Below are positions 36,169 to 58,859 of a stretch of 64,000 bases of DNA, one piece after another. The DNA is from Polyangiales bacterium. GTDB lineage: Bacteria; Myxococcota_A; Polyangia; Polyangiales; Ga0077539. The stretch is from assembly GCA_046351535.1 (NCBI GenBank), contig JAXLYG010000023.1, forward strand, positions 1-64,000, in the 5' to 3' direction. The notes beneath the pieces are model-generated. The model was not told the DNA's origin and searched no databases. It was given only the letters and a program-made list of their open reading frames with translations. The number at the start of each line of letters is the position of its first letter. Positions within the stretch are counted from its first letter, which is position 1. The position numbers and the translations under genes were made by a program.

Positions 36169-39100
36169 TCACTCCTTGCGTCGCGGCGCACCGGGCGGCG
36201 GAGGCACGTCGCCGCCCGAGGGGACGAAGGTCAACGCAGCGAGGGCGTCGAGCGAGGGCGCGTCGTCGGAGTCCGAGAGGCTCACCTCGACGTCACCCGC
36301 ATCGACCTCCTCGGCGTCCGAGACGCTCAGCTCGTCGAGGGCGTCGAAGGGAGAGGGTGCAGGCGGTGCAGACGCCTGGGGCTCCGCAGGAGGCGCAGGG
36401 GGCGCCGACATCCGCGGCAGCGGCGGCGGGAACGACGGCGACGGATCAGGCTGCGCAGCCGCGGCGACGGGCGCGATGGGCGCAGGCGCGGCGGGCCACA
36501 CGGGGCGAACCTCTTCGGCATCGGCGACGAACTCCGCCGACACCTCGGGCGCGTCGAGGAAGCTCTGCCCCGCAGGGTTCGCCTCGCTCACGCTGGGGAA
36601 CGAAGGCGGCGAGGGCATCCGCGGCGGAGACACCTGCGCGAGCGCGGCCCCGAGGTTCGCAGGCGGCGGCACCGTCGGCGTCTCGGCGACATCCTCGTGG
36701 AAGCGAAGCGGCGGGGCCTCGGCGCTCGCATCACCGAACGACGACGCGCCGAAGAGCGGCTGCGCGGCGGGCGCGACCGGCATCGCAGGAGGCGCCTCGT
36801 ACGCGGGCTGCTGCGCGTACTCGGGCTGCGCCGGATACTGCGGCGGCGCGACGAACTCGGCCTGCGCCGGGTACTGCGGCTGCGCTTCGTACTGCGGCTG
36901 GGCTTCGTACTGCGGCTGCGCTTCGTACTGCGGCGCGGCCTCGTACTGCGGCTGCGCCTCGTAGGTCTGCGCGACCTCGTACGAGGGCGCGGCGTCGAAC
37001 ATCACCGTGGGCGGATCGTCGGCGGGGATGTTCCCTCGCTGCGTGACGGAGCCCTGCTCCTCCTCGGGCGCCGACGGGACCACGGGCGTCGTCGTCGCGG
37101 GCTCCGCGGGAGCCTCCTCGAAGGCCATGAGGTCGGCCTCGATGATCGTGGGCCTGCGCTCCAGGCGTTCGAGCGCGGCCTTCGCCTCCTCGTCGCCGGG
37201 GGCCATCTTCAGCACGCGGCGCCAGATGTCGCGCGCTTCGAAGACGTTCTTGATCCGCGTCTCCCAGATCACCGCCATGCGACGCATCACCGCCGCGCGG
37301 TCTCCGCCCGCGTCGATCTCACGCTCGAGCGCCATGAGCAGCGGCTGCCAGCGCTCGTGACGCTCCAGCAATGACTGGAGCGCGCGCAGCACGTCGATGT
37401 CCTTGGGGGCGAGCTCGGCGAGCCGCTGGTACGCCTCGATGGCCTCCTCGACGCGACCGAGACGGTCGGCCAGGAGCGACGCGCGACGCCCCGTGTACGT
37501 GCGCGCGGTGCGAGCCTCGTAGGCCTCGTCGATCACCTTGCGGTAGAGGGTCACCACCTCGCCGAGACGGTCCGCGCGACCCGCGGCGTCTTCGAGCGCA
37601 GCGGCGCCGCGGACGTCATCGGGCCACACCGAGACCGCGCGGGTGTAGAGCCCGAGCGCGTGATCGAGGAGCGCGAGCTCCTGCTCACACAGCGCGCCGG
37701 CGCGACGGAGCAGCACGGCGCCCACGCGGGGGTTGTCTTCGACGGCGTCTTCCGCGAGGCGCGCGTAGCGCTCGACGAGGCCCGAGACCATGCCCGCGTC
37801 GGCGCGACGCTGGTCGGCCTGGATGCAGGCGTTCTCGACGCGCGCGAGCATCTCCTCGTCGGGCTCCTTGCGGCCCACGGCCTGACCGATGGCCTGCTCG
37901 ACGTACTGAAAGGCCGTCTCGCGGTCACCGAGCGAGCCGCCCGCGGTCTCGGCCGCGCGGAGCGTCACGCCGAAGCGCTCGGAGTCCGACTGCGCCGCCT
38001 TCTTGCGGCGATCGAAGGCCACGAAGAGGTCCGCGTGGCGCTTCGCGTTGGGCACCAGCCGCACCACCGCGTCGAGGATCTCGTCGTCGGCAGGCGCCTT
38101 CGCGAGCGCCGCGAGCGCGAACTCGAAGGCCTGCGCCCGGCCGCCGCTGCCCTCGATGGCGTTGAGGCCGCGCATCGAGAGCTCGTGCGCGAGCGTCGGA
38201 TCGGTGCACCCGTCGAGCGCGGCTTTGTACGCCTCGGCCACGCGCTGCGGGCGCTTGACCTTCGAAGCGAGCGCGTCGATGTGCGTGAGGTCCTCGGCGT
38301 CGACCTTGGCCACCGCGGCGCTCACCCACGCTTCGAAGGCCCCCTCCGGGTCACCGAGGAAGGTCTCCTTGCGCCGCGCCACCTCGCGCCAGAGCATCGA
38401 GCGCCCTTCGCGGTCGCTCACGCGGTTCGAGAGCTCCGAGAGGATCGGCACGAGCGCCGCGTGGAGGTCACGCTTGTTCGACAGGTCGAGCATCATCTCG
38501 ATGCACGCGACGTCGCCGCTCTTCACGGGCGCGATGAGCACCTCCCAGGCGCGGTGCGCGTCGTCGAGCTTCTCATCCGAGAGGTGCGCGATGCGCTGCG
38601 CGAGCTTCGAGATCTCCTCGTCGTCGCCCTCGATCTCGATGAGCTGATCGAGGTAGCCCACGGCCTCGCGGTAGCGCCCCTCGGCCTCGCACATGTCCGC
38701 GAGGCGCTGGATCACACCGAGGTCGCCCTGATCGGCGCGGTGCTGGATCTCGAGCGCCTTGATGATCGCCTCGGGCGTCTTGACCTCGCGCTCGACCATC
38801 GTCACGAGTCGCGAGGCGTGATCGGCGCGACGCTCGTCGTCCTCTTCGGGCGTGAGGTCGACCTGACGCTCGATGGCCTCCGACGCCACGTCCCAGCGAC
38901 GCGCTTCGAGGGCCATCTTCTCGAGGAGCTCCCAGGTCTCGGCGTGATCGGCGCCGTGCTCTCGCGCGGCCGCGGCGAGGGCGTCGACGGCCTCGTCGAC
39001 CCGACCGAGCTCCGTCGCGAGGAGCTGCGCGCGACGCTTGAGGATCTCGCGCTTCGCCTCGCGATCCTTCGCGGCGGCGGCGGCTTCGATGAAGAGCCCC

Positions 39101-41316
39101 GCGAGCGCCTCGTTGTCGCCCTTGAGCTCGGCGATGCCCATGAGCGCTTCGAGCGCCTCGGAGTCATCTCCGAGCGCGGCGCGCATCGAGACCTCGCGAA
39201 GCTCACGCCACACGCCCGACGCGGCCACGGCGTCCGAGAGTCCGACGACCCTCGCCGCGCGGCGCAGGAGCTCGACCTTCGCCTCTCCATCCGGCAGTCG
39301 CGCGGTGCGCTCACGCACGAACGCGAGGAGCCGCTCACGCTGCCCCGACGCTTCGAGCGCGTTCATCAGGGCGCCCGCGAGCGAGTCGTCATCGGGCGCC
39401 ATCTTCACGGCGCGCTCGGCCTCTTCGAGCGCGGTGGCGGTGTCGCCCATCGCCCGCGCGGCGTCGGCGGCCCTCGCATGGAGCGCGGCCCTCGCGGGAC
39501 CTTCAGGCAGCGCCTCGGCGCGGTTGACGAGCGTCGCGTAGAGCTCTGCGTTCTGTCCCGCGCGCGAGAGGAGCCGTTCGAGCGTGGCCCAGCCTTCGGG
39601 GTACTCGGGGTTGCGACCCACGACCTCGCGCCACGCCTCGATGGCCTCGGGGAGCTGCCCCGCCTCTTCGCGCGCCGCGCCGAGCTCGGCCTGACGCTGC
39701 GTGATGTTCTCTTCGGTCGCGACGTCGACGCGCGCGCGCATCACATCGGCCGCGCCCGCGGGGTCACCCGAGTCGCGGCGGGCGCGCGCGAGCTTCAGCG
39801 CGACGGCGTCATCGTCGGGCGTGAGGTCCCACACCATCGCGAGGATGAGCGCCTCGCTCGACGGATCCTCGCGGCGCTCGCGGTGAACCTCGGCGAGCTT
39901 GAGCAGCGTGTCGCGCCGCTCCGTCGCATCGGGAACGAGGTCGGCGCACTGGCCGAGCACGTCGGCGTAGGCCTCCCACTGGCCGCTGCGTTCGAAGAGG
40001 GCCCCGAGGGCGCGCAGCGCGTCGAGGTCCGTGGGGATCGTCTCGACGACCTCGCGCCACGCCTCGATGGCCGACTCGACGTCGTTGAGGTTCTCGGCGT
40101 TGACCTTGCCGAGCTCGCGCAGCTTCGGGATGCGCACGTCGGGCGGGCATCCCGGCGAGCGCACCGCGTTGGCGATGAGGTCGCGCAGCTCTTCGAACTG
40201 CCCCTTCGCGCGGAGGTCGTCTTCGACGAGGGTGAGCGCGTCGGTGTCCGCGGGCGACTGCGCCAGCACGGCGCGCATCGTCGCGAGCATCGAGGCCCTG
40301 TCGCCGTGGGCTCCCTGGAGCACGGCGAGATCTTTCATGTCTTGCAGGCGCTGCTCGTCGCTCGACGAGGGCGCGAGCTGATCGATGAGGGCCGCGAGGT
40401 CCTGCACGCGGCCCGCCTGGCGGTAGAGCGCCGCGAGCTGGCGCGCGAGCGAGGGGTCGTCGTTGATGAGCGGTTCGAGGCAGGTGATGGCGTCGTCGAC
40501 CTGACCGACGGCGGCGTACATCTCCGCGAGGCTGCGGCGGATCGACGGCGTGTACGGGCTCGTGGGGTTCGTCGTGACGAAGGCGATCTGTCGTACGGCG
40601 AGGTCTTCGCCGCGGCCCGCGTTCGTGTAGGCCTCGTGAACGACCTGATAGGCCATTTCATCGCCGGGGTATGTGTCGAGCGCGATCTCGGCGAAGGCGA
40701 GCCCGTGCTCGGGGCCCATCGCTTGCGAGAGCGCGCCGAGCAGCGAGGCCGCGCGCGGCGCGTCGTCGGGCTGCGCCTGCGGAGACTGCGACCGCGCGAT
40801 GAGCGCCTCGGAGAGGTCGCGCATCACGTCCCAGTCGTCGGGCGAGAGCGAGTAGAGCTCTTCGAGGCACGCGATGCGACGGCCCGTGTCGTTGGCCTGC
40901 GCGTAGATGCCCGCGGCCTCGCGCAGCCTCGGGAGCCTCAAGAGCGGGTCGGAGATCGCGTTGAGGACGCGCTCCAGCAGCGGCGACGCGGCGCGGAGGT
41001 TCCCGATCTGGACGTAGATCTGGTAGCAGGCTTCGAGCGCGGGGAGCAGCGACGGATCGAGCTCGAACGCGCGCTTGTAGCAGGCCACCGCTTTGTCCGG
41101 TCGACCTACGTTCTTCGCCCAGATCTCGCCTGCCCGGTAGAAGAGATCCGCGGAAGACGCGGGGTCCGGGCGTCTCCCTGCGATCTGCTCGGCGAGCGTC
41201 GCGAGCTGTTGAAACTCCCCTCTCGACGCATAGTAGTCCCAGAGGAACGCGAGCGACTCGGCGTCATCGGGGTTGGCGCGCAGACGCTCGTAGTAGGCGT
41301 AGATCGTTGGGTCCAT
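36169..41316 (-). CDS. giant tetratricopeptide-repeat (TPR) protein, 1715 aa, with Pro/Ala/Gln-rich C-terminal tail
   Basis: Dozens of TPR-like helical hairpins (…AVACYKRAFELDPSLLPALEACYQIYVQIGNL…). The C-terminal ~350 aa are low-complexity and contain tandem YEAQPQ hexapeptides. Confidence 0.85.
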   Translation of the reverse strand: MDPTIYAYYERLRANPDDAESLAFLWDYYASRGEFQQLATLAEQIAGRRPDPASSADLFYRAGEIWAKNVGRPDKAVACYKRAFELDPSLLPALEACYQIYVQIGNLRAASPLLERVLNAISDPLLRLPRLREAAGIYAQANDTGRRIACLEELYSLSPDDWDVMRDLSEALIARSQSPQAQPDDAPRAASLLGALSQAMGPEHGLAFAEIALDTYPGDEMAYQVVHEAYTNAGRGEDLAVRQIAFVTTNPTSPYTPSIRRSLAEMYAAVGQVDDAITCLEPLINDDPSLARQLAALYRQAGRVQDLAALIDQLAPSSSDEQRLQDMKDLAVLQGAHGDRASMLATMRAVLAQSPADTDALTLVEDDLRAKGQFEELRDLIANAVRSPGCPPDVRIPKLRELGKVNAENLNDVESAIEAWREVVETIPTDLDALRALGALFERSGQWEAYADVLGQCADLVPDATERRDTLLKLAEVHRERREDPSSEALILAMVWDLTPDDDAVALKLARARRDSGDPAGAADVMRARVDVATEENITQRQAELGAAREEAGQLPEAIEAWREVVGRNPEYPEGWATLERLLSRAGQNAELYATLVNRAEALPEGPARAALHARAADAARAMGDTATALEEAERAVKMAPDDDSLAGALMNALEASGQRERLLAFVRERTARLPDGEAKVELLRRAARVVGLSDAVAASGVWRELREVSMRAALGDDSEALEALMGIAELKGDNEALAGLFIEAAAAAKDREAKREILKRRAQLLATELGRVDEAVDALAAAAREHGADHAETWELLEKMALEARRWDVASEAIERQVDLTPEEDDERRADHASRLVTMVEREVKTPEAIIKALEIQHRADQGDLGVIQRLADMCEAEGRYREAVGYLDQLIEIEGDDEEISKLAQRIAHLSDEKLDDAHRAWEVLIAPVKSGDVACIEMMLDLSNKRDLHAALVPILSELSNRVSDREGRSMLWREVARRKETFLGDPEGAFEAWVSAAVAKVDAEDLTHIDALASKVKRPQRVAEAYKAALDGCTDPTLAHELSMRGLNAIEGSGGRAQAFEFALAALAKAPADDEILDAVVRLVPNAKRHADLFVAFDRRKKAAQSDSERFGVTLRAAETAGGSLGDRETAFQYVEQAIGQAVGRKEPDEEMLARVENACIQADQRRADAGMVSGLVERYARLAEDAVEDNPRVGAVLLRRAGALCEQELALLDHALGLYTRAVSVWPDDVRGAAALEDAAGRADRLGEVVTLYRKVIDEAYEARTARTYTGRRASLLADRLGRVEEAIEAYQRLAELAPKDIDVLRALQSLLERHERWQPLLMALEREIDAGGDRAAVMRRMAVIWETRIKNVFEARDIWRRVLKMAPGDEEAKAALERLERRPTIIEADLMAFEEAPAEPATTTPVVPSAPEEEQGSVTQRGNIPADDPPTVMFDAAPSYEVAQTYEAQPQYEAAPQYEAQPQYEAQPQYEAQPQYPAQAEFVAPPQYPAQPEYAQQPAYEAPPAMPVAPAAQPLFGASSFGDASAEAPPLRFHEDVAETPTVPPPANLGAALAQVSPPRMPSPPSFPSVSEANPAGQSFLDAPEVSAEFVADAEEVRPVWPAAPAPIAPVAAAAQPDPSPSFPPPLPRMSAPPAPPAEPQASAPPAPSPFDALDELSVSDAEEVDAGDVEVSLSDSDDAPSLDALAALTFVPSGGDVPPPPGAPRRKE
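36800..36965. repeat. 15/18-bp tandem repeat encoding (YEAQPQ)n inside the TPR gene
   Basis: ctgcgcttcgtactgcgg units repeated ~8 times on the plus strand (minus-strand sense QYEAQP). Confidence 0.75.
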
Positions 41317-41382: not shown

Positions 41383-42786
41383 TTACCGGAACACGGCGCT
41401 CGACCGGCCTCTGCGGGTGCCTCGGGGCCTTCGCACCGCGAGCCTGCGGGGCCTCTCCCTCGGACTCGGATCCGCTTCGGGCGCGCGTCGCGCGTGCAGC
41501 ACCGACTCGCTCCGAACGCTCGCTTCTGCGGCTCCTGCGACGGCTTCGACGGGGAGCAACATCGCAGCGTCGGCGTCGCGGAGCGTGCGAGACCACGCCC
41601 GGGTCATCCTCCGATCGCCTCCTCCGTCGCGGGGCATGAGCCCTGCGCTGACGTGTACGGCGGGCGCATCGGGCGAGGCCCTGTGTGAATTGACCGTCCA
41701 CAGCGGGAGGTATCCCGCCGACGCGACGGCGAGGCGCTCACCCCTGCGTTCGAAGCGCAGCACGGCGAGCAGGCCCGCGCGGGTCCTCGCGTCGAGCGAC
41801 ACGTGGGGATGCCTGAGGTCTTCGAGGAGCGCTGCCTCGGCGTTGGCGCCCTGATTCGAAACCAGGTTGCCGAGCGAGTAGTAGAGCGGAACGAGCCTGC
41901 CCCCCGCGTCGATCCACTCGGCGCGCAGCGGGACGTGGGGGTGGTGACCGATCACCGCGTCTGCGCCGGCCTCGGCGACGCGACGAAAGAACGCGCGCTC
42001 CACGGGCGCGACGCGGTCCTGATACTCGCTGCCTGCGTGGAGCGAGACCATCACCGCGCCGCAGCGCGCACGGGCCTCTCGCACGGCGCGAAGGAAGCGC
42101 TCCTCCTCGGCGGGGACCTCGGGCCTCGCGATGGCGACACGCGCGCGATCGGGTCCGGGGATCTCCATGTCGAAGTTGAGGAGGCGCGTCGCGGCGAGCA
42201 CGCAGAGCGTCGAGCCCGCGAGCGGAAACACCTGCGGCGTGAGGGGATCCTCGCCCGCGAGCGCGGCGCCCACGGGGGTGACGTGACGGCTACGAAGCGC
42301 GCGCACGGTCTCGTCGACGCCCGCGACGCCCTGATCGAAGACGTGGTTGTTGGCCGACGACACCGCGTCGACGCCCGCCACGGTGAGCGCGTCGAGGAAC
42401 GCGGGATGCACGTTGAAGCGCATCTGCTCGCGCGACACGGGACGCGACGCGGCCACCGGGGTCTCGAGGTTCACGAGCGCGAGGTCCGCCGCGCGCAGCA
42501 CCGGCGCGACGGGCGCGAGGAGCGCGAAGGTCCCGTAGGCATCGACCGCATCGAGCACCTCGGCGTGCGGAACGAGGTCTCCCGCGAAGACCACCGTCGC
42601 GGCGGTCGGCGGCTCCTCCGCGGAGGCAGCGGGGAGCTCCCGCACGGACTCGGTGACGATGGGCGCGGTGAGCGCGGCGCTGATTGCGGTCGCGCGAACG
42701 GCCACCGACGGACGCGGATCCGCGTACGCGGACGACGCGCCGAGGAGCGCGCACACGAGCGAGAGGAGGGTGGTCGAGCGGCCCAC
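41383..42786 (-). CDS. CapA/PgsA-like metallophosphatase (poly-gamma-glutamate capsule biosynthesis family), secreted
   Basis: Signal peptide (LLSLVCALLGASSAYADP). Calcineurin-like motifs (VVFAGDLVPH; LALVNLETP; SSANNHVFDQG; IGHHPHV). Confidence 0.75.
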   Translation of the reverse strand: MGRSTTLLSLVCALLGASSAYADPRPSVAVRATAISAALTAPIVTESVRELPAASAEEPPTAATVVFAGDLVPHAEVLDAVDAYGTFALLAPVAPVLRAADLALVNLETPVAASRPVSREQMRFNVHPAFLDALTVAGVDAVSSANNHVFDQGVAGVDETVRALRSRHVTPVGAALAGEDPLTPQVFPLAGSTLCVLAATRLLNFDMEIPGPDRARVAIARPEVPAEEERFLRAVREARARCGAVMVSLHAGSEYQDRVAPVERAFFRRVAEAGADAVIGHHPHVPLRAEWIDAGGRLVPLYYSLGNLVSNQGANAEAALLEDLRHPHVSLDARTRAGLLAVLRFERRGERLAVASAGYLPLWTVNSHRASPDAPAVHVSAGLMPRDGGGDRRMTRAWSRTLRDADAAMLLPVEAVAGAAEASVRSESVLHARRAPEADPSPRERPRRLAVRRPRGTRRGRSSAVFR

Positions 42787-42825: not shown

Positions 42826-43682
42826 TCAGTGCTGACCGGTGAGGACCTGCGCGGGCGCGGTGAGGATCTGCGTGGGGTTGGCGCCCTGCACGCCGGGGAT
42901 CGGGAGCCCCTGCCCTCCCCCGTTGTTGAGACCGGGAACGGGCACCGGGAAGGTGTTCTGCGACGACTGCCCGCCCGCGATGCCGGGGATGGGCACGCCG
43001 GGGATCGGTCCCGCGCTCGCGCCGTTGTTCATGCCGGGGATCGCAGGCGTCGGGATCGCCGGAGGACGCCCCGTGCCCGACTGGAACCACGACTGCCCCA
43101 TCGAGCGCGCGCCCGCATAGACAGCCTGTGCGGCGGCCATGCAGGGCGTCTCGAGGAGCCCGCGATGCTCCGAGCGACAGATCGCGTTGAGGTCTTCGTG
43201 GAGGCGGTCGTCGATGCGCGTGCGACGGCCCTCGGTGCGGTCGAGGGCGAGGCCGGTGCCGCCATAGTTCCGGTAGCCGAAATCGTGGCGGTTGCAGGCG
43301 CGGTTGAAGCTCTCGCGGAACGGCCCGCTGATCTCCCCGAAGGAGCACCCGTCGGCCGACCAGTCGAAGGGCGGCGGATGGAGCGCGCGCATGTTCTGAA
43401 AGGTCTCGAGCGGGAGGTTCATGTACCCGTCGGCGGTCATCACGAGGAGCTGCCTCGGCGCATTGGCCGGGAGCGGCGTTCCGAGCGCGGTTCCGCGCGA
43501 GCGCGTGGCGCGACCGCGGGAGCGACCCGACGAGGCCGTGGCGGGGCTGTTGCCGAGCGCGCCGTTCATCACGTTGGTGGCCGCCCCGACCATCTGATCG
43601 ATGGGGACGTTCTGCGCAGAGACCGTGGGCGAGAGGGCCGCGACGGCGACCCCGAGCGTGAAGGCCGTGACGTACGTTCGCA
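42826..43682 (-). CDS. secreted prokaryotic phospholipase A2 (Phospholip_A2_3-like) with Pro/Gly-rich C-terminal tail
   Basis: ATG near 43682 (MRTYVTAFTLGVAVAALSPTVSAQ). DGCSFGEISGPFRESFNRACNRHDFGYRNYG matches the catalytic His-Asp segment of Streptomyces-type secreted PLA2 (…ACARHDFGYRNY…). C-terminal IPGxx repeats. Confidence 0.75.
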
Positions 43683-43719
43683 TGGCGGGCAACGGTGCTC
43701 GAAAGAGGGGCGCCGTGCA

Positions 43720-44576
43720 ACCCTCTCCCCGTCCCTCTCCCGCGAAGCGGGAGAGGGTGCCCGTTGGTAGCTGCCATGCCCTCACCCCGCCCTCTCCCGC
43801 CAGAGGCGGGAGAGGGAGTCCGCGAGGCGACCCCGTCGCGCAGCGCCACGCAGGAAGCCTGGCACCGCGTCACCGTGTCGCGCGACGCGCCTGTCACAGC
43901 CCCACGCGCGAAGCGAACGCGCGACACGGCGGCGCGGCAACGAGCGCGCGGTCATCGCCCTCCGCCATCGCCGCGCTGTCTGTCATCGCCCTCCGCCCGT
44001 CGCCGCGTCTCGTCGCGTGACGTCTCCCTCTCCCGCCAGAGGAGTCTGACCGCCATTGGGGAGTTGACGGCGCCAGACGCTTCCCGTCGCGCCTGGGGTT
44101 CGGCCCGCGTGAGAGGGACGCGCGTGACGCGCCCAGGGCTCGCCCCCCGAGGGATGTACGCGATCGGGGGGCTCGGCCTGGGCTTCATCAAGGCACGGAT
44201 CACCGGTCTTCGACCGGTTCAGAAGGCATGGCGAGGCTCTCTCTGCTGAACCCTCGAAGAGGGTGATCCGTGCCTCGTCATAGCCCTGGCTGAGCCCCCG
44301 ATCGTGTACATCCCTTGGGGGGCGAACCCTGGGCGCGTCACGCGCGTATCTCCCTGGGCGCGTCACGCGCGTATCTCCCTGGGCGCGTCACGCGCGTATC
44401 TCCCTGGGCGCGTCACGCGCGTCCCTCTCACGCGGGCCGAACCCCAGGCGCGACGGGAAGCGTCTGGCGCCGTCAACTCCCCAATGGCGGTCAGACTCCT
44501 CTGGCGGGAGAGGGCGGGGTGAGGGCATGCCAGCTACCAACGGGCACCCGACTCCCGCTTCGCGGGAGAGGGACGG
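43720..44576. repeat. non-coding nested inverted-repeat element (outer arms ~43720-43820 / 44505-44576; inner ~117-bp arms 44019-44137 / 44404-44520)
   Basis: Direct reverse-complement matches were found by eye. gacgtctccctctcccgccagaggagtctgaccgccattggggagttgacggcgccagacgcttcccgtcgcgcctggggttcggcccgcgtgagagggacgcgcgtgacgcgcccagg (44019-) reappears as its reverse complement at 44404-. The outer arm ggtgcccgttggtagctgccatgccctcaccccgccctctcccgcc matches the reverse complement of 44520-44565 with 1 mismatch. Only R/A/G-rich spurious ORFs overlap the region. Confidence 0.8.
44328..44427. repeat. 4 x 25-bp perfect tandem repeat (cctgggcgcgtcacgcgcgtatctc) within the inverted-repeat element
   Basis: Read directly in the sequence. 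The unit duplicates the distal end of the inner inverted repeat. Confidence 0.85.
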
Positions 44577-44584
44577 GGTGAGGG

Positions 44585-45145
44585 TCAGTGGTTGTCAGTC
44601 CCGGTCTTCGCGGGCGCGTGGGCGTCGTTGGCGGGCGCGCTGACCTTCATCTCGGCGCGGACCTTCGAGGCCCTCGCGAGGCCCTGTGCGACGGAGGCGC
44701 CGTGCGCTTCGACGTAGTCCCGCACGCCGCCGTAGCTCTCGGCGGGAATGCGTCCCCGCTCGATCCTGCGGGTGACCTCCTCGTAGGCTTCGCGGAGCAT
44801 GGCGTCGGCCTTCGGCTCGATCACGGCGCGGCGGGCCTCGACGTATTGCCGCAGCGCTTCGAGGCGCGCGAGAAAGCTCCAGATCGCATCGAGCTCGTTG
44901 GCGACGGCGCCGCACCGCTGTTGAGAGGGCGCGAGATCGCCGAGGTCTTCGCCGTTCACCTCGATCTCGCGCAGCCCGCGGAGGCACTCCGCGCGATTGC
45001 CCTCGGCGATGCGCCACTTGCTGTCGCCCGCGGCTTCGAGCACCTCCTTGCGATCACCAGGGACCACGGGCAGTTGCGCCACGCTCATCGACTGCCCACC
45101 GAACACGATCACGCCGTTGATCGGCGTCTGCAACGTCGTCGCCAT
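44585..45145 (-). CDS. hypothetical protein (186 aa)
   Basis: ATG at 45145 (MATTLQTPINGVIVFGGQSMSVAQLPVVPGDRKEVLEAAGDSKWRIAEGNRAECLRG...). Mixed composition, no family recognised. A hairpin repeat lies immediately 3' of the stop. Confidence 0.55.
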   Translation of the reverse strand: MATTLQTPINGVIVFGGQSMSVAQLPVVPGDRKEVLEAAGDSKWRIAEGNRAECLRGLREIEVNGEDLGDLAPSQQRCGAVANELDAIWSFLARLEALRQYVEARRAVIEPKADAMLREAYEEVTRRIERGRIPAESYGGVRDYVEAHGASVAQGLARASKVRAEMKVSAPANDAHAPAKTGTDNH

Positions 45146-45405
45146 CGGACACTCCGCGAGCGAACCGCCGCCGTCGAACGCACCGCGCGCCCTCCTCCGC
45201 AGTCACTCACAAGAGGCGGGAACGGCCACGTCTCGGAGTTCTTGAACGCTTTTTGAATTTTTCTCTCCGTCCCTCCCATGCGTCATGAGGATGCGCGCTC
45301 GACGCGGCGCGTCTCTCCGAAGATGTGATTTTTCGTGTGAGGTCACGAAGGAACGAAGCATCGGGTACCTCTCCCCCGCGTCGCGCGTCTGCGAAGCGAT
45401 GCCGG

Positions 45406-45768
45406 TCACGTCCGCCGCGCGCGTCTTCGAAGCGCCGCGTTGGGGAACTCCGGGAGCACCGCACCATCCCGCGCGACCGCGCGCACGATCCAGAGAACCC
45501 CGGCGAGGAGCACGGCCCGGCCGGAGCGTTCCTTCAGCTCCCTCCACGAGATGGCATCGTGGTCGAAGCCGGGGTAGGTCACGCAGAACGAGGGGAGGCT
45601 CGCGTCGTCGACGGTGACGCCCACCGTGGCCTCGCTGTCGGAGAACGCCAGCACGAGCGTGTCGCCCTGGATCTCCCCACGCACCGCGTCACCGCAGACG
45701 GCCCTGATCTCCGCGAGGACCTCAGCGAGCATTCCCGCCTCCGCTGCATTCACGGCCCGCGGTCCCAC
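45406..45768 (-). CDS. possible small hypothetical protein (120 aa)
   Basis: ATG start. Contains W/Y/F/C (SLPSFCVTYPGFDHDAISWRELKERSG). No family recognised. Confidence 0.35.
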   Translation of the reverse strand: MGPRAVNAAEAGMLAEVLAEIRAVCGDAVRGEIQGDTLVLAFSDSEATVGVTVDDASLPSFCVTYPGFDHDAISWRELKERSGRAVLLAGVLWIVRAVARDGAVLPEFPNAALRRRARRT

Positions 45769-45819
45769 GCGGGTCGCGGTGTCGAGCCGAGCACGATCGC
45801 GCGGCGATCGCGTCGCGGT

Positions 45820-46155
45820 TCACTCGGGGTGGTACACATATCGGGCGTAGCGCTCCGCATAGAACGCCTCGAGCGACAGGCGCGATTCGAACAGCTCCGA
45901 CCAGAGCTCGTAGCCATCGACGAGGGGCGCTCCGTCCTGCTCATAGCCGATTCGCTCGGGGTGGATGGCGAGGTCGCGATCCTTCGCATAGTCGAGCGAC
46001 TCGGCCCTGGCCTTCTCATGGGCCTCGGTCCAGTCTCGCGCGTTGAAGGAGACGACGCGCTCCTCGAAAACGTTGGTTCCGCACTCTTGGTCACGCCGAA
46101 GTGGTAGACGGTTCGGATGGCGTACCAGGGCATCGGGGTCACCCCTGTACGGCAT
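45820..46155 (-). CDS. hypothetical protein (111 aa), acidic/aromatic-rich
   Basis: NVFEERVVSFNARDWTEAHEKARAESLDYAKDRDLAIHPERIGYEQDGAPLVDGYELWSELFESRLSLEAFYAERYARYVYHPE has a natural-looking composition. A second frame upstream (MPWYAIRTVYHFGVTK) suggests a possible frameshift near 46080. Confidence 0.45.
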   Translation of the reverse strand: MPYRGDPDALVRHPNRLPLRRDQECGTNVFEERVVSFNARDWTEAHEKARAESLDYAKDRDLAIHPERIGYEQDGAPLVDGYELWSELFESRLSLEAFYAERYARYVYHPE

Positions 46156-46653
46156 CCTTGAGCGTCCGGGCGAGCGCCATCACCTCCTCGGCGGGGCACG
46201 CGCGCACGAAGACCTGCACCCACGCCGGTAGCATCACGCAGTGTGAGGCATAGAACAGCCTCTCGTCTCGCATCGGGCGTCCGGCGAACACGAAGTCGAT
46301 GCCGTCGGTCTCGTCGAGTCGCAGGTCGAGCGACGTACCGGCTTCCCGCTCCAGACGCGCCTGCTCGTCGATCAGGGGGCGCAGCTTGCGCTTCACCATC
46401 AGCACGGTGTCACTCCCCGAGAAGAGCCTCGCGTCGGCCTTGACCTCGAGCAACCGGGGACCTTGCAAGTCGGCCAGCGTCTTCGCCTGCATGTTGATCC
46501 GGAACACCTCGAAGATGACGTGCGGCCCATGCTCCCTGAGCATCTCGTCCTCTCTCTTGAAGTGTGCCTCGACGGCGTCGTGCCCCTCGATCGTCGTGCC
46601 ATCGACGACGTTCACGACTCGGACATTGTCGTAGCGCGTGTCGGTCTCTTTCA
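46139..46653 (-). CDS. hypothetical protein, NTF2/SnoaL-like fold suspected (171 aa)
   Basis: ATG near 46653 (MKETDTRYDNVRVVNVVDGTTIEGHDAVEAHFKREDEMLREHGPHVIFEVFRINMQ...). The pattern of polar and hydrophobic residues fits a cone-shaped alpha+beta barrel, but this is tentative. Confidence 0.5.
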
Positions 46654-46724
46654 TCGGTTGCACACGTCGCGCAGCCGTCGTCGATCTGGCGCTGCCGATG
46701 GTAGGTCTCTGGAGCGCTCCTCGC

Positions 46725-47432
46725 TCACACCCGACGCGCACGCCCCGCGACGCGCCCCAGGAACGGCGCCACATGCGCCCATGCCTCTCGCGGCCGCGCT
46801 TGCAGGAGGAGGTGCGGCGCATCAACCAGCGCGAACGCAGCGTCCGGTCTCACCGCGCGCATGCGTTCGGCGCTTCGGGCGCTCACGAGTCGATCTCGCC
46901 CCGCGTTCAGGCACAACACAGGACAGCTCAGTTGCTGGAACTCCCGTGCGACATTCACCCGGGAGACCGAGGCGACGCGCTCCGCGATGACCTCACCGCG
47001 CACACCGAGCATCGCACGTCGAACGGTTGCCGCGAGCGCAGCGTCGCCGCCGGTCAGGAACACGCCCAACAGGAACTCGGGCGGCGGTCGGCTCCACATC
47101 TGCGAGGGAACGAGCCGGGAGAGCGCAGAGAGCGGACCGGACAACGGAGGCTCGATGAAGGTGGTGCTGAGCACGACACCCACCACCCGAACGCTCCGAG
47201 CCGCGAGAAGGATCGCGAGCGGTCCAGAGAACGACTCCGCCACGAGCACCACGTCGCCGTCTGGCAGACTGGCCTGCACCCGTTCCGCGAGCTCGGGATA
47301 GCGCTGCGCGCCGTCGTCAGGGAGCCGCAATCGCGCAACTGCGAGCCCCGGTGGCGCGGCTGCGATGAAGGGCGCGAACAGATCCCCCGTTCCGTCGAGA
47401 CCGGGAAGCAACACCGTGGTGGTCTGGCTCAC
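46725..47432 (-). CDS. alpha/beta hydrolase family protein
   Basis: VLLPGLDGTGDLFAPF...DVVLVAESFSGPLAIL carries the nucleophile elbow (GxSxG-like ESFSG) and matches the fold pattern. Confidence 0.7.
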   Translation of the reverse strand: MSQTTTVLLPGLDGTGDLFAPFIAAAPPGLAVARLRLPDDGAQRYPELAERVQASLPDGDVVLVAESFSGPLAILLAARSVRVVGVVLSTTFIEPPLSGPLSALSRLVPSQMWSRPPPEFLLGVFLTGGDAALAATVRRAMLGVRGEVIAERVASVSRVNVAREFQQLSCPVLCLNAGRDRLVSARSAERMRAVRPDAAFALVDAPHLLLQARPREAWAHVAPFLGRVAGRARRV

Positions 47433-47529
47433 GTCGCGGTCTCCGGGTCAGCGCGCGGCCGAAGCGTGCCCGCATGAACCGCCCTCGACACGCGACGTGT
47501 GAGCCCCTCGCCCGTCTGGAACCGTCGCG

Positions 47530-48018
47530 CTACTCAAGCTTCGCAAGCTCCTCCAGCAAGCACGCCTGAAGCTCTTCCCCCAGTTGAAAGAAACCGTCCG
47601 CCGACAAGATCACGTGTCGCGGGCTGGCCCGGTAGGAGCCAGGAAGAAGCTGTCCACCCCTGACCTCGAACCCGCCCACGATGTCCTCAGGCGGCACGGC
47701 GCCGTTCGGCGTTCGAGTCCGCTGGTCGATGACGTAGAGCCAGCCATCACCCTGTCGCCGGGCCGCCGCGACAAGGCCCGAAGCGCCCGGCCCACGACGG
47801 GCGATCACGTCGTGCATGAAGTCTACGAACACGCGGTTCCTCGCGAAGATCGCCGGGGTGATGTCCTCCCCGGGCTTCGGGGGCCGGAGCAGAACGCCGA
47901 CGATCGCCTCGGGCGCAAGCCCGCGCGCGAACACATGTTCGCCAGGCAGACAGCTTACATAGTGCTTGATCCCCTCGGGCGTATTGGACTCGTAGATGCT
48001 CATTGAAAACTCAGCCAT
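47530..48018 (-). CDS. hypothetical protein (163 aa)
   Basis: ATG at 48018 (MAEFSMSIYESNTPEGIKHYVSCLPGEHVFARGLAPEAIVGVLLRPPKPGEDITPAIFARNRVFVDFMHDVIARRG...). Natural-looking composition. No family recognised. Confidence 0.5.
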   Translation of the reverse strand: MAEFSMSIYESNTPEGIKHYVSCLPGEHVFARGLAPEAIVGVLLRPPKPGEDITPAIFARNRVFVDFMHDVIARRGPGASGLVAAARRQGDGWLYVIDQRTRTPNGAVPPEDIVGGFEVRGGQLLPGSYRASPRHVILSADGFFQLGEELQACLLEELAKLE

Positions 48019-48234
48019 CGCACCCCGCTCCTCGCGCTCAACCGCCTGCCACGACTGCCCCAGAGAGATCGACGGTATCATGGGCGCTCGTCGCCCGCCC
48101 CGCCAGCCGCGCCTCGCGCGAAATCGGGGGCGTCACGGTCACCACCCGAGCTGCCATGTCGGTCTCCTACCTCAGTTCATACGGAATGGCGAGCGCGGCC
48201 GGTGTCCGCACACCCGAAACACACGCCCGTCCGA

Positions 48235-48915
48235 TCAAGCCCCCGTCGCGACACCGTTCATGCGGAGCAGCGGTCGGAGACCGTACTCATCTACGGTGCT
48301 CCGACAGAACGCAGATTGGAAGCGCGGATCCTGCACCGACTCGTAGACCGGCCGCCCTCCCGCCTCGTAGCCGACGACGCGCCCATGAACGACACAGGCG
48401 AGCGGAAACGCGCCCGCGAGCCGCACCGTCGCCGAGGGACTGAACGGGTGAGGCGTGTCTCCGCGGGTCGAGGCCACAGGACCGAGCTCCACCACGAGCT
48501 CGGCGCGAAGACCGTTGGCCGCGAACACGAACTGAAACGCGCGAACGGGCCGCGCCACGCCGCCGAGTCCCACCGGATACACGACGCGGCTGACGGTCTC
48601 CTCCGCGGGAATCTCGACGCGCACGCCCGCAAGAAGGAGCTGCGATCGGTCGGGCGTCAGGTCGATCGTCCAGTCGAGCAGCTCGATCTCGTCGCCCCCG
48701 GGACGACCCACCGACTGAAAGCTGTAGGTGAGTCCGCGGCCCTCCTCGACGACGAAGCCACCGTGGAGCGCGAAGGTTCCAGTCGCATCGGTCACCGCGC
48801 CGGTCACGGGTGCAGGCGTGAGGTCGGGCATGAAGCCGGGTACGTGCGTCCCGCCCGCGTCGCACGCGACGAGGAGGGCGAAGGTCACGAGATTGAGCGC
48901 GACGCGATCGGGCAT
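48235..48915 (-). CDS. hypothetical lipoprotein
   Basis: Internal ATG (MPDRVALNLVTFALLVACDAG: lipobox LVAC). Beta-rich mature region. Confidence 0.5.
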   Translation of the reverse strand: MPDRVALNLVTFALLVACDAGGTHVPGFMPDLTPAPVTGAVTDATGTFALHGGFVVEEGRGLTYSFQSVGRPGGDEIELLDWTIDLTPDRSQLLLAGVRVEIPAEETVSRVVYPVGLGGVARPVRAFQFVFAANGLRAELVVELGPVASTRGDTPHPFSPSATVRLAGAFPLACVVHGRVVGYEAGGRPVYESVQDPRFQSAFCRSTVDEYGLRPLLRMNGVATGA

Positions 48916-49027
48916 ACGGTCACTTCGTGGACCTCGACGATACACCGACGGCCCGCCTCTCACGCGCGATCCCTGCTAACCCTCCAGTAACGTCAGTCCG
49001 CCGCCGATCACCGTCGCTCGTCGTCGT

Positions 49028-49118
49028 TGCCGAACGGCTGGCCGATGTGCCGCCGCAGCGGGTGGAGCGGGTTGGCAATGCGTGAGGTGGGGGCGGACGG
49101 CACCATCGGCTTGTTCGG
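49028..49118. repeat. attC-like imperfect inverted repeat, copy 1 (91 bp)
   Basis: Begins gccgaac (RYYYAAC-like, one mismatch) and ends gttcggc (GTTRRRY-like). Inner paired boxes ggctggccgatgtgcc / ggcaccatcggc. Lies ~120 bp downstream of CDS 49241..49849. Confidence 0.5.
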
Positions 49119-49240
49119 CAAGCCTGACTCGGCGACGAACCTAACCGTTGCGATCACGTGCTGCCCCTCCGAGACCGTTGTGCCTTGGTTCGTTGCATCC
49201 ATCCTCGGGGCGCATTCTCTCCCAATTTCGCTCTTATGGA

Positions 49241-49849
49241 TCAACTCTCTTCGTCCGCAGTTCGCTTGGGCTTCGATCCACGCCCTTCACTCACCGTCCG
49301 TACAGATGCGGCGCCCGCTTCAGCCTCCACCGTCGGCAGCCCGATGTACTTACCCTGAAGCGCGACATGCACTCCGTCCGCGCGGTAGTCCGTGAGGATC
49401 ACCTCCACAGTGGATGATAACCGCGAGTAGGTGAGTGATCTGTAGCTCTGCCTAATGGGGGCTATGCCCTCGAGCTCGGGTTGCTCGACCGTGACTCCGT
49501 GGGGGTCGTCGCGATCGGGCACCCCGAGGACGCGAAACGCATCCTCCACCGACTTGATCCCGGCAAGCAGTCGGTCGAGCCGCTGCCGCTCCTCCGGGGA
49601 GATGACGGCAAACAGCAGGTGTCGCTTCGACTCGGGAGCCGCGCCGCCGCAGAATGGGCAGTGGTAGATCCGCAGCGACGCGTTGCCGACCTCGCACGTA
49701 CCGTCGCTGCTAGGGTCGGGGTACACGAAGTTGTACTCGTTCAGTTTCGGGTCGAAGACGATCGGCGATTGCGGATCGTCGGCAGCGCGCTCCAGATAGT
49801 GGCAGGCGCACGACTGCTCAGTCACGGAAGCAAAGGTCGGCTTCGCCAT
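49241..49849 (-). CDS. hypothetical zinc-ribbon-like protein (cassette ORF)
   Basis: ATG at 49849 (MAKPTFASVTEQSCACHYLERAADDPQSPIVFDPKLNEYNFVYPDPSSDGTCEVGNASLRIYHCPFCGG...). CxC…C…CPFC Cys cluster. Lower local GC. Confidence 0.55.
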   Translation of the reverse strand: MAKPTFASVTEQSCACHYLERAADDPQSPIVFDPKLNEYNFVYPDPSSDGTCEVGNASLRIYHCPFCGGAAPESKRHLLFAVISPEERQRLDRLLAGIKSVEDAFRVLGVPDRDDPHGVTVEQPELEGIAPIRQSYRSLTYSRLSSTVEVILTDYRADGVHVALQGKYIGLPTVEAEAGAASVRTVSEGRGSKPKRTADEES

Positions 49850-49913
49850 TGGATCACCTCCACCAACACCGCCGAACGGCCGAGACGGGCCTCGCCAGCG
49901 CGATTGCTTGGAG

Positions 49914-50003
49914 GCCGAACGGCTGGCCGATGTGCCGCCGCCCCGAGGGCCGTGCGGGCTCCGCAAGGGCAGCGGTGGCGGTCGGCACCATCGGCTTGTT
50001 GGG
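49914..50003. repeat. attC-like imperfect inverted repeat, copy 2 (90 bp)
   Basis: gccgaac ... gttgggc, where the terminal core GTTGGGC fits GTTRRRY exactly. Same internal boxes as copy 1. A partial extra gccgaacggcc lies at 49871. ~168 bp downstream of CDS 50171..50707. Confidence 0.5.
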
Positions 50004-50170
50004 CATCCCGCTCGTGCTCGCATCACACGCGTCCGACGCTCTCTGCCGCCTCCTGCTCGTAGCTTTGTTCATCTACCTCTCCGTAGCTGCACCGCCGTGC
50101 CCGTCGGCCAACGCCTGCCGCTCCCTAGCGGGCCGTCGGAGCGGAGGCACATCGAACGGCAGCAAAAGAA

Positions 50171-50707
50171 TCACGCTTCGGAGAAATCCAGGTTCATTGG
50201 GGCGGACTTGATTGAGTACATCGACTGCATGTTGGTGGCGGGCACCGAATCATCGACAGCCTCGAAGCGCACGTCCGCCCAGAAGAGCTCGCCGCTCCCC
50301 GTGAGAATATTCGAGATGAAGATCGCGTTGGCCTCCTCGGGGACGTCGAGCACGCACGCGTAGTGAGTCCATTCTGTAGTTCCGGAGACAGCTGGACGCG
50401 TCTCCATATTGTCGAACGCTAGAGTTCGTCGTGAGCCGTCCGACTCAGCGCCATCGATGCGGAAGCAAATCGCGGCGCGGCCGGTTACATCTACCGTGCG
50501 TAGAGCAGCCGAGAGCCGGACGCGCCTCCCACGATATGGATCGGGCTTGAATACCTGAAACATTGCGCCGAAGCCATCGGCCCCATCAGCCGAACGCCAC
50601 ATCCGAACAACGGGCTTTCCGCTGTGCACCTCAGAACTGACCTCAGCCGAATACGCGTCGCTCCTTGAACCCGTAATGCCCCAGTCCTTCACCGCACAGG
50701 TGCCCAT
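50171..50707 (-). CDS. hypothetical protein (178 aa, cassette ORF)
   Basis: MGTCAVKDWGITGSRSDAYSAEVSSEVHSGKPVVRMWRSADGADGFGAMFQVFKPDPYRG... with natural-looking composition and a lower GC than the flanks. Confidence 0.5.
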   Translation of the reverse strand: MGTCAVKDWGITGSRSDAYSAEVSSEVHSGKPVVRMWRSADGADGFGAMFQVFKPDPYRGRRVRLSAALRTVDVTGRAAICFRIDGAESDGSRRTLAFDNMETRPAVSGTTEWTHYACVLDVPEEANAIFISNILTGSGELFWADVRFEAVDDSVPATNMQSMYSIKSAPMNLDFSEA

Positions 50708-50757
50708 CGGAGTGCCTCCTTCTCGACCGTAGAGGAAATTCGGTGCTTTCGCAGGCT

Positions 50758-50848
50758 GCCCAACGGCTGGCCGATGTGGCGCCGCCCCGAGTCAGGTGAG
50801 TAGTTCGCGAGTTGAGTGGGTGCGGTCGCCACCATCGGCTTGTTCGGC
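50758..50848. repeat. attC-like imperfect inverted repeat, copy 3 (91 bp)
   Basis: gcccaac (exact RYYYAAC) ... gttcggc. Internal boxes ggctggccgatgtggc / gccaccatcggc. Confidence 0.5.
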
Positions 50849-51190
50849 CCGGCGGGTCCAGTGGGCTGATCCACGGGGGCCACAGCCAACCGCTCCGTCG
50901 CTCGGAGTCCGTTGCCCGTCGCTCGCCTCGTGAGTCCCGCCACCGTCACCCTTGCTTTTTGTCGTTCAACACCCATTGCCGCCAACTCGTCAAGAGCTTT
51001 CCGACCGCGTCGACGCCATGACCAGCGAGTTTCTAGCCTGTGAGGGGAGATCGCGGGCGTGGATGGACAGGCGCGTCGGGCGCCCGCTCCGCGCCTCGGA
51101 AACTCTGGTCTACGGACCAATGCACCGGCACCGCGGCATCAGATCAAACCCTCCCGACTACACCTCCCCGTGTCCGAATCTCCTTACCGA

Positions 51191-51568
51191 CTATCGAGCT
51201 GTGCACGCCCTTCCCGAGACGATGGCACCAGAATCCGAAATCACCGCAGCGGTATTACAATGATACTGACTTGTGAGTCTTCTTGAACAGTACGTCGACT
51301 CATCGCACGCGAGTGCGCAGACACGTGACGTCGTATCCACCAAACAAACCACGCCGACTCCACCGCAATCGAAAATATTTTCGCAGTATTTCGTGCACAC
51401 TCCTTGCGGAAACTGAGCGCTTCGCAGGCAAAATGTGCTTGGTGGGCAATCCGCGTTGAGTGAACACGGGGCCGAAATTGGCGAATATTCCTCTGTGGCC
51501 CCACCACACCCTCCACCCTCCCATGCTGACGCGACAGCAAGAATTACCCCCACCTTCACGGAGTTCAC
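51191..51568 (-). CDS. small secreted Cys-rich protein (125 aa, cassette ORF)
   Basis: Signal peptide (MNSVKVGVILAVASAW). 14 Cys (…CSLNADCPPSTFCLRSAQFPQGVCTKYCENIFDCGG…). Low GC. Confidence 0.45.
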   Translation of the reverse strand: MNSVKVGVILAVASAWEGGGCGGATEEYSPISAPCSLNADCPPSTFCLRSAQFPQGVCTKYCENIFDCGGVGVVCLVDTTSRVCALACDESTYCSRRLTSQYHCNTAAVISDSGAIVSGRACTAR

Positions 51569-51612
51569 GGGCTCAACTCCCTACGTCGCCGCCGACCACC
51601 GCCGCCGAAGCT

Positions 51613-51703
51613 GCCGAACGACTGGCCGGTCTGCCGCCGCAGCGAGCCAGGCGCGTAGTTGTTGAGTGAAGTGCAAGCGGTCGGCAGCACCGGCTTGTTC
51701 GGC
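51613..51703. repeat. attC-like imperfect inverted repeat, copy 4 (91 bp)
   Basis: gccgaac ... gttcggc. Begins 34 bp after the stop of CDS 51737..52321. Confidence 0.5.
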
Positions 51704-51736
51704 ATTGTGTTCATCAATTTCGGAGGTCTTCCTCAG

Positions 51737-52321
51737 TCAAAATATCCCGCCGCCGCAGAGCACGAGACCACGGCCGTCGGCCAATGGCAACAGTGTCGGC
51801 GCGAAATACCGAGCCTGCCACTGGGGCGCTTCGGTAGTCTGCCGCGCGCTGTTCGCTGACGAGATCTCGTACGCGACCACTCCGCCTGTGATCCAGCCGA
51901 TCGCGGTCGTGACCATGGGAACGACCGAGAGATCATTATCCGCGAGTTGGAACGGAACACCTACCAGGTAGCCCGCGAACCCGCCTGCCCAGCCGCCGAG
52001 CATGGTCCACCCATAGCCGCCGCCTCCCCCCATCGCATTGCCGGTGAGCGTGATGCCTCCCGGAACCGCGAACCACGTTCCGACGGCGCCTACCACGATG
52101 ATCGAGATTGTACCGGCGCTCGAACTGCCTTCGAAGCCCGCCAGCGCGAGGCCGTAGGTCAAGCCGAAACCGAGCGCGAAGGCCGCGCTCCCTCCGCCAA
52201 CTTCCACGAGCACGCGCCCCGTACTGATAGGACTGATCGGGTGCCCCTGAGCCCACACGTCCGAGGCGCTCATGCACACGGCAAGCGAGAGCGGAACAGA
52301 CCCGGCGATTCGCCAACTCAC
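51737..52321 (-). CDS. secreted Gly-rich hypothetical protein (194 aa, first cassette ORF)
   Basis: Signal peptide (MSWRIAGSVPLSLAVCMSASDVWAQG). Gly/Ala/aromatic-rich repeats (GFGLTYGLALAGFEG; GGGGGYGWTMLGGWAGGFAGYL). Confidence 0.5.
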   Translation of the reverse strand: MSWRIAGSVPLSLAVCMSASDVWAQGHPISPISTGRVLVEVGGGSAAFALGFGLTYGLALAGFEGSSSAGTISIIVVGAVGTWFAVPGGITLTGNAMGGGGGYGWTMLGGWAGGFAGYLVGVPFQLADNDLSVVPMVTTAIGWITGGVVAYEISSANSARQTTEAPQWQARYFAPTLLPLADGRGLVLCGGGIF

Positions 52322-52539
52322 GGGTATGTAGCGCGCAGGCGCCCTGACAGATATGGCATTCGGCTCACGAGCGCTTGGAGGTGAAGGTCTCGGTCTGGCC
52401 CCAATCGACGGCGAGCACTACTGTTCTTGGTAGGTCGCTTGCCCCTATACGCCGCATCTCTCGGCTCACCTAGTGCTCCTCGTTGACCGCCGCTCATCGC
52501 GGCTGCCGAACATCTCATTCACCCGCAGGACGATAACAC

Positions 52540-58809: not shown

Positions 58810-58859
58810 CCCTCCCCCGGTCCCTCCCCCGCGAAGGGGGAGAGGGACGGGGTGAGGGC
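58810..58859. terminator. GC-rich imperfect hairpin (gccctcccccggtccctccccc-gcgaa-gggggagagggacggggtgagggc), a member of a dispersed palindromic repeat family
   Basis: Lies directly after the stop of CDS 57175..58809. The same gggagagggacggggtgaggg motif occurs at 43731-43756 and 44545-44575. Confidence 0.5.

Follow-up and report, generated by a model that had tools for sequence, protein, structure and literature searches.

The stretch of DNA analysed here, 64,000 nucleotides of contig JAXLYG010000023.1 from an uncultured soil/sludge myxobacterium of the Polyangiales (GenBank assembly GCA_046351535.1; hereafter the window), encodes a phospholipase A2 (PLA2) of the group XIV type. The PLA2 gene is located on the minus strand at positions 42826-43683 and specifies a precursor protein of 285 amino acids. 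This protein is a genuine member of the group XIV/PF09056 family and displays all sequence- and fold-based features that define it. Judged by its conserved residues and its likeness to characterised enzymes, it is probably an active, secreted, Ca2+-dependent PLA2, a reading to which we assign a probability of about 0.85. An earlier note on this DNA had proposed a secreted PLA2 of the Streptomyces type, and the database matches described below bear out this identification.

A Pfam search, which the earlier note had recommended, returned PF09056 (Prokaryotic phospholipase A2, Phospholip_A2_3) with 70.3 bits, well above the gathering score of 29.4 (E=2.5e-19). The match aligned residues 89-196 of the protein with profile positions 7-110 of 110. 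PF09056 was the sole family detected at E<=1, and neither DUF1353 nor the animal-type family PF00068 was among the matches. Secreted PLA2s of the animal type (PF00068; groups I/II/V/X) carry 5-8 disulfides. An animal-type enzyme was ruled out by the presence of PF09056 alone at E<=1 and of four cysteines only. Sequence comparison with the PDB retrieved four solved PLA2s of the group XIV type with E-values from 1.5e-14 to 1.6e-10. The best of these, the PLA2 of Streptomyces violaceoruber (SvPLA2; 1FAZ and four more entries), aligned with residues 72-193 at E=1.5e-14 and shared 34% identity over 124 aligned positions.

All catalytic and Ca2+-ligand positions of the window protein are occupied by the canonical residues. 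The Ca2+ ligands of SvPLA2 are reportedly Asp43, the backbone oxygen of Leu44 and Asp65. The string quoted in the earlier note (...ADGCSFGEISGPFRESFNRACNRHDFGYRNYGG...) is present in the translation, and the His of the CNRHD motif, on whose conservation that note had made its proposal depend, aligns with His64 of SvPLA2. In an alignment of the 28 sequences that form the clade of the window protein, this residue (His133), Asp158 and all four cysteines are invariant. Cys113, Cys130, Cys169 and Cys181 are the only cysteines of the protein; they align with Cys45, Cys61, Cys96 and Cys107 of SvPLA2, so that the disulfide pattern noticed earlier was recovered, and by analogy two disulfides, Cys113-Cys130 and Cys169-Cys181, are predicted. 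The Streptomyces and Tuber borchii enzymes are classified as "group XIV" secreted PLA2s and have in common a catalytic His/Asp dyad and an important Asp beside the His (PMC11525133). The Streptomyces PLA2 is a 14 kDa protein that contains two disulfides and requires Ca2+ (PMC9728194).

Structural modelling, likewise suggested in the earlier note, led to a solved member of group XIV. An AlphaFold2 model was built on the 28-sequence alignment. Its core reached predicted local distance difference test (pLDDT) values of 82-93 over most of residues 70-205, with a decrease to 70 at residues 111-120, and contained helices at residues 77-88, 92-101, 123-140, 151-172 and 178-202. Values below 50 were obtained for most of residues 17-62 and for the tail from about residue 219 onward. 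When the model was compared with the PDB using Foldseek, the Tuber borchii PLA2 (4AUP) was the sole significant match (probability 1.00), with a target TM-score (template modelling score) of 0.82, a root mean square deviation of 2.0 Å and 33% identity. The core is thus modelled as a compact all-helical PLA2 fold.

The PLA2 reading frame is real. It is supported by the in-frame GC content at third codon positions (GC3), by an excess of synonymous changes and by the position at which homologous proteins start. GC3 was approximately 0.91 across all four segments of the protein, whereas codon positions one and two had values of about 0.5-0.7. The ortholog used for codon comparison comes from L001, a relative with about 95% identity to the window; over the whole open reading frame (ORF) the two genes differ by 28 synonymous and 7 non-synonymous codon changes. 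Met1 is an invariant column in the alignment of the 28 homologs. The ORF delimited in the earlier note (42826-43682) stood, and its end coordinate, which was one nucleotide out of frame, was corrected to 43683. In the ORF listing the longest minus-strand form extends over 42826..43785, begins with GTG and comprises 319 amino acids. The GTG start at 43785 was rejected, as the extra 34 codons lie in an upstream repeat element and Met1 of the homologs aligns with the ATG. Because this repeat element is absent from L001, the codons between GTG and ATG are not regarded as protein. Most of the window has a GC content of about 70-75%, and the value falls to 62-69% at 44-56 kb; as a consequence of the high GC content, overlapping spurious ORFs occur in every region. 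A second PLA2 core (paralog) was not found elsewhere in the window.

The catalytic core is preceded by a predicted signal peptide and a basic N-terminal region (N-region) and followed by a tail rich in Pro and Gly. The leader contains Arg2, a hydrophobic core and a VSA/QN junction with small residues at positions -3 and -1. This arrangement, read from the sequence, corresponds to the n-h-c pattern of a signal peptide, as the earlier note had suggested. The most hydrophobic 19-residue segment of the protein begins at residue 5, within the leader, and the Ala23-Gln24 junction hardly varies across the family alignment. The mature N-terminus of SvPLA2 aligns with residue 71/72 of the window protein (query residue 72 corresponds to chain residue 2), and the N-region is therefore additional to an SvPLA2-like enzyme. 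It is predicted to be disordered and opens with a conserved motif (consensus VGAAxNAxxGVLGNSP, given more loosely as VGAAxNxxxGxLGNSP), after which comes a basic stretch rich in Ser and Arg. SvPLA2 and the Tuber borchii enzyme TbSP1 are both matured by removal of an N-terminal sequence (PMC11525133). By analogy with this processing, the N-region is probably a propeptide.

The Pro/Gly-rich IPG-repeat tail, also described in the earlier note, consists of 20% Gly and 19% Pro and harbors five [I/V]PG motifs. A conserved RPPxIPTPxIPGxNNGxxxGPIPGVPIPG block is followed by (L/V)PIPG repeats of variable number, and part of the clade ends in a duplicated ...QVLTAPAQVLxGGR sequence. In comparison with L001, the tail differs by 10 synonymous and 2 non-synonymous codon changes. 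Both the N-region and the tail are translated and, like the leader, under purifying selection. Searched alone against Pfam at E<=10, neither segment matched any family. The NCBIfam scan of the protein gave no family at E<=1 and hence neither a named equivalog nor a C-terminal sorting signal; none of the MYXO-CTERM, PEP-CTERM, GlyGly-CTERM, T9SS CTD and LPXTG signals was recognised, as no NCBIfam or Pfam model matched. Signals of the -CTERM types have a transmembrane helix at the C-terminus together with a basic tail. No transmembrane segment was found after the leader (no 19-residue segment has a mean hydropathy >0.66), and the tail is free of Cys. A profile of the tail alone, searched non-exhaustively (8000 candidates scored) against 5.8 billion proteins, yielded five matches, all of them truncated pieces of PLA2s of the same family. 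Likewise, an index-free search of 1.84 billion cluster representatives revealed no protein from outside the family that matched the N-region or the tail alone among the top 150. The Pro/Gly tail appears to be a flexible extension specific to this PLA2 clade.

The identical protein is publicly available as NCBI MFO0648766.1, "MAG: phospholipase A2 [Polyangiales bacterium]", where MAG stands for metagenome-assembled genome, and is also encoded on L010, an assembly from activated sludge. In IMG, the name "Prokaryotic phospholipase A2" is given to a protein that clusters with it at 90% identity. The full architecture is common to 27 further proteins with 54-85% identity, all from metagenomes or MAGs; three of these relatives were found in species-representative genomes, whose labels read Myxococcota or "delta proteobacterium". 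Beyond this clade, the closest sequences come from actinobacteria and share 30-42% identity in the core only. P0049, a candidate for a distant member of the same architecture, was rejected because its gene call is garbled by a frameshift. Among the 1.84 billion cluster representatives, PLA2 superfamily matches numbered 801, 195 and 3 at thresholds of E<=1e-3, 1e-10 and 1e-30, respectively, and the description of a small and patchily distributed family given in the earlier note is a fair one. The literature searched contained no description of a group XIV PLA2 in Myxococcota. In a paper on Collimonas, PF09056 served as a search model only, and no PLA2 was reported.

Table 1. Coordinates of the PLA2 gene, its upstream leader and the segments and residues of the encoded protein.
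Feature	Position	Strand	Details
Complete coding sequence, PLA2 precursor	42826..43683	-	ATG 43683-43681; stop TGA 42828-42826
36-nt 5' leader directly upstream of ATG	43684..43719	-	Identical TTGCACGGCGCCCCTCTTTCGAGCACCGTTGCCCGCC in the window, L001 and L010
Signal peptide (predicted), residues 1-23	43615..43683	-	MRTYVTAFTLGVAVAALSPTVSA then QN; Sec/signal peptidase I type, no lipobox Cys
N-region, residues 24-70, probable propeptide	43474..43614	-	Conserved across clade; isoelectric point (pI) 12, net charge +4; pLDDT mostly <50
Catalytic core, group XIV (prokaryotic/fungal) PLA2	43084..43473	-	Residues 71-200, 14.6 kDa, five helices; PF09056, 1FAZ, AlphaFold2, Foldseek
Ca2+-binding loop (predicted), Asp111-Gly112-Cys113	43345..43353	-	Equivalent to SvPLA2 Asp43-Leu44-Cys45; 1FAZ alignment; codons gac-ggg-tgc
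Catalytic His133 and adjacent Asp134, in CNRHDFGYRNY	43282..43287	-	Equivalent to SvPLA2 His64-Asp65; alignment; codons cac-gat
Asp158, His/Asp dyad partner	43210..43212	-	Equivalent to SvPLA2 Asp85; alignment; invariant in clade
C-terminal tail, residues 201-285	42829..43083	-	Uncharged, predicted disordered, duplicated QILTAPAQVLTGQH end

Within the clade the Ca2+ ligands vary. The combination Asp...His-Asp is present in 9 of the 28 sequences, including the window protein, and Arg...His-Glu in another nine (P0010, P0012, P0014, P0016, P0018-P0020, P0022 and P0025), while the rest are Asn, Ser, His or Gly variants. The Asp of the Ca2+ loop (equivalent to Asp43) is replaced by Arg, Asn, His, Gly or Ser in 18/28, and the Asp beside the catalytic His by Glu or Ser in 14/28. 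From these residues, the Arg...His-Glu group may be a Ca2+-independent or non-catalytic branch comparable to the Lys49 homologues of snake-venom PLA2. Extended to the window protein, this would mean a PLA2-fold protein without lipase activity, which binds or perturbs membranes in the manner of the Lys49 homologues and whose effective part is the basic N-region or the tail. The altered Ca2+ ligands and the Glu or Ser beside the catalytic His of its sister sequences, which suggest a relaxed or altered constraint, would fit such a protein, as would the basic character of the mature protein (pI 9.2). However, the window protein retains every catalytic and Ca2+-binding residue and both disulfide pairs. 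Furthermore, catalysis is argued to be retained in the clade because His133, Asp158 and the four cysteines are invariant throughout, and we consider a non-lipase function of the window protein very improbable.

For an active enzyme the following course can be proposed. The pre-pro-protein would be exported by the Sec pathway and its leader cut at VSA/QN. Two disulfides would form in the periplasm and lock the core. Ca2+ would be held by Asp111, the backbone carbonyl of Gly112 and Asp134. His133, oriented and polarised by Asp158, would activate a water molecule to attack the ester at the sn-2 position of a glycerophospholipid, and the cleavage would release a lysophospholipid together with a free fatty acid. 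The basic 47-residue N-region would probably be clipped off beyond the cytoplasmic membrane, as happens in the enzymes of Streptomyces and the truffle, and this would spare the membranes of the producer. The tail might act as a spacer, in surface or vesicle retention, or in interfacial contact. As to the use of the enzyme, the likeliest one is extracellular breakdown of foreign membrane lipids, by which a predatory or saprophytic myxobacterium would lyse or feed upon other microbes, but this is a guess. Such a predatory role is plausible and is neither supported nor contradicted by gene neighbourhoods or the literature searched; we hold it to be possible at somewhat less than even odds.

Where the enzyme acts was considered in the light of the genes around it. 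Across PLA2 loci on long contigs, no conserved synteny, operon partner, immunity gene or secretion-system linkage was seen. The PLA2 genes are neighbours of genes for an aspartyl-tRNA synthetase and an ABC transporter in L005 and L006, of BamD-like tetratricopeptide repeat (TPR) genes in L007 and L008, and of glyoxylate-shunt genes and Spo0M in L009. In the window, a gene for a CapA-like protein begins 39 nt downstream of the PLA2 stop codon on the same strand, followed by that for a 1715-residue TPR protein. Among the other loci examined, this gene order was encountered in the near-identical L001 only.

Neighbourhoods of this kind, housekeeping-like and variable and without a link to toxins or secretion, would suit an active PLA2 that acts on the envelope of its producer. 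Such an enzyme, held in the periplasm or at the outer membrane, perhaps by the tail, would remodel outer-membrane phospholipids or generate fatty-acid or lysolipid signals. The protein has a Sec leader, no signal for export across the outer membrane was found in the NCBIfam and Pfam scans, and the conserved tail could serve as a tether. On the other hand, those group XIV enzymes that have been characterised are secreted to the medium (PMC9728194, PMC11525133), and neither a lipobox nor a transmembrane anchor nor any known sorting signal was recognised in the protein. Moreover, a resident active PLA2 without a conserved immunity or inhibitor gene nearby would presumably be hazardous. Action on the producer's own envelope is therefore judged unlikely, and release as a Ca2+-dependent enzyme is preferred.

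Several points weigh against the preferred reading of an active, secreted, Ca2+-dependent PLA2. The enzymatic activity of the window protein and of its clade is a prediction, and signal-peptide cleavage, propeptide removal, disulfide formation and Ca2+ binding are deduced from residue patterns and by analogy with the known enzymes. One or both acidic Ca2+ ligands are lost in 19/28 clade members, and hence the canonical Ca2+-dependent chemistry is not strictly kept in the lineage. The AlphaFold2 model does not dock the N-region on the core with confidence. Finally, no link to predation or secretion machinery was found in the neighbourhood of the PLA2 loci examined.

Directly upstream of the ATG, the 36-nt leader is the sole upstream sequence common to the window, L001 and L010. 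Beyond it, 37 nt upstream of the ATG, the window contains an 866-nt nested, near-perfect palindrome (43720-44585), which separates the PLA2 leader from the upstream ORF. Its arms comprise 44026-44138/44402-44514 (113 nt, 100% complementarity), 43755-43806/44498-44549 (52 nt, 98%) and 43720-43753/44552-44585 (34 nt, 97%), with the centre near 44233. Folded as single-stranded DNA, the palindrome has an energy of -461 kcal/mol (z=-38). A side branch of 236 nt in the left arm (43807-44042) is flanked by the 17-nt direct repeat CCCTCTCCCGCCAGAGG (43790-43806 and 44026-44042), and the 25-nt unit CCCTGGGCGCGTCACGCGCGTATCT is present in four tandem copies in the right arm (44327-44426) and once in the left arm. 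L001 carries 41 nt in place of the palindrome. L010 has the first ~200 nt in common with the window, including two small hairpins resembling repetitive extragenic palindromic (REP) elements, and then diverges. Two pieces of the inner arms gave no exact match each when searched against metagenome contigs. The inner palindrome could be genuine and have been inserted at a rearrangement hotspot, or it could be an assembly artefact of the fold-back type.

The REP-like hairpins are GC-rich, consist of CTCTCCCGC-loop-GCGGGAGAG followed by GGGCGGGGTGAGGG, and are located at 43735-43757, 43792-43814 and 44552-44572. They are found upstream of the PLA2 gene in L010 too. One further REP-like hairpin lies about 15 kb away at ~58822-58858, just past an ORF ending at 58809. 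Scans for sigma-70 consensus promoters and intrinsic terminators around the PLA2 gene found nothing, and Rfam and tRNA scans of the window gave no matches.

The CapA-like protein encoded downstream (41383-42786, minus strand) belongs to the PGA_cap/CapA-like metallophosphatase family (PF09587, E=5.8e-59) and has a signal-peptide-like N-terminus of its own. In the TPR-repeat protein (36169-41316, minus strand, 1715 amino acids), the C-terminal third is of low complexity, with tandem PQYEAQ-type hexapeptides and Pro/Ala-rich stretches. The PLA2 contains 21 Arg and no lysine, and the lysine frequency in its clade is 0.0009 compared with a window background of 0.0165. Freedom from lysine was rejected as a special feature, since it applies to 7 of about 40 other ORFs of the window as well, among them the adjacent CapA-like gene (41383-42786) and the ORFs at 9608-11251 and 139-723. 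A block of lower GC content extends over ~45400-53900, with values of 0.62-0.67 over 46-54 kb as against 0.70-0.75 in most other parts of the window. It contains a run of small minus-strand ORFs, nearly all without a Pfam match, the exceptions being DUF6980 at 49244-50026 and a sub-threshold DUF4288 at 45823-46155. None of the ORFs between 49 and 53 kb reaches the high GC3 that is usual in this genome. This block may be a horizontally acquired island.

In several respects the PLA2 gene is an ordinary member of a known family. Public pipelines already name it correctly, its core is free of unusual features, and the family is in industrial use. What is documented here is a coherent group XIV PLA2 clade known so far from metagenomes and Myxococcota MAGs only, and not from actinomycetes or fungi. 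Its two conserved accessory segments could bear on how a Gram-negative predator safely handles a membrane-destroying enzyme, and the natural variation of the Ca2+ ligands is a possible source of Ca2+-independent PLA2s for lecithin processing or oil degumming.

A more far-reaching interpretation is that the clade possesses a Myxococcota-specific architecture for PLA2 delivery, in which a zymogen propeptide is combined with a tail that acts as a new retention or targeting signal, and in which the guanidinium group replaces Ca2+ in the Arg...His-Glu branch. If so, the basic propeptide would keep the enzyme silent in the periplasm of its producer, and the tail would direct it, for example, to outer-membrane vesicles or to the surface of the cell, from where prey could be attacked on contact. 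The Arg...His-Glu branch would then be either a Ca2+-independent PLA2 or a non-catalytic membrane toxin of the Lys49 type. This interpretation is tentative, and we regard it as improbable.

Among the known systems, the window protein resembles SvPLA2 (1FAZ, 1LWB, 1KP4, 1IT4, 1IT5) in the CxRHDFGYRNY motif, the Asp of the Ca2+ loop, the dyad Asp and the four cysteines, and the 34% identity extends over the entire mature enzyme. Core size (~14 kDa) and an N-terminal leader for secretion, which is predicted in the window protein, are further points of agreement. Unlike SvPLA2, it has an additional conserved 47-residue basic N-region and an 85-residue Pro/Gly-rich tail, and its host belongs to the Gram-negative Myxococcota instead of the actinomycetes, so that the outer membrane must be crossed for release. 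TbSP1 of Tuber borchii (4AUP) is the best structural match and was detected by sequence at E=1.6e-10. The removal of its N-terminus (PMC11525133) sets the example on which the N-region is interpreted as a propeptide. In contrast to the window protein, TbSP1 is eukaryotic, has an unrelated pro-sequence and lacks the Pro/Gly tail.

Multidomain actinobacterial PF09056 proteins (e.g. P0054, P0128, P0166 and P0106) contain a PLA2 core with 38-44% identity, and several actinobacterial members also carry a Pro-rich stretch directly after the core. There, the stretch is a linker to a C-terminal Trp/Gly-rich folded domain, whereas the tail of the window protein is terminal and has conserved motifs of its own. 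In P0054 the PLA2 core follows a long repetitive N-terminal region; the FN3 domain (PF00041, precomputed Pfam) belongs to P0029. These arrangements suggest that the PF09056 domain is used more modularly than the image of a small secreted enzyme implies. TtaP of Salmonella Typhi, a PLA2 of the DUF1353 class, is distantly related to the group XIV enzymes, whose His/Asp dyad and adjacent Asp it shares (PMC11525133). It has neither disulfides nor a secretion signal and shares less than 20% identity with SvPLA2; the window protein, which has no DUF1353 match, is not of the TtaP class. The features that set the window protein apart from the characterised members of its family are its host phylum, its conserved N-region and its conserved tail.

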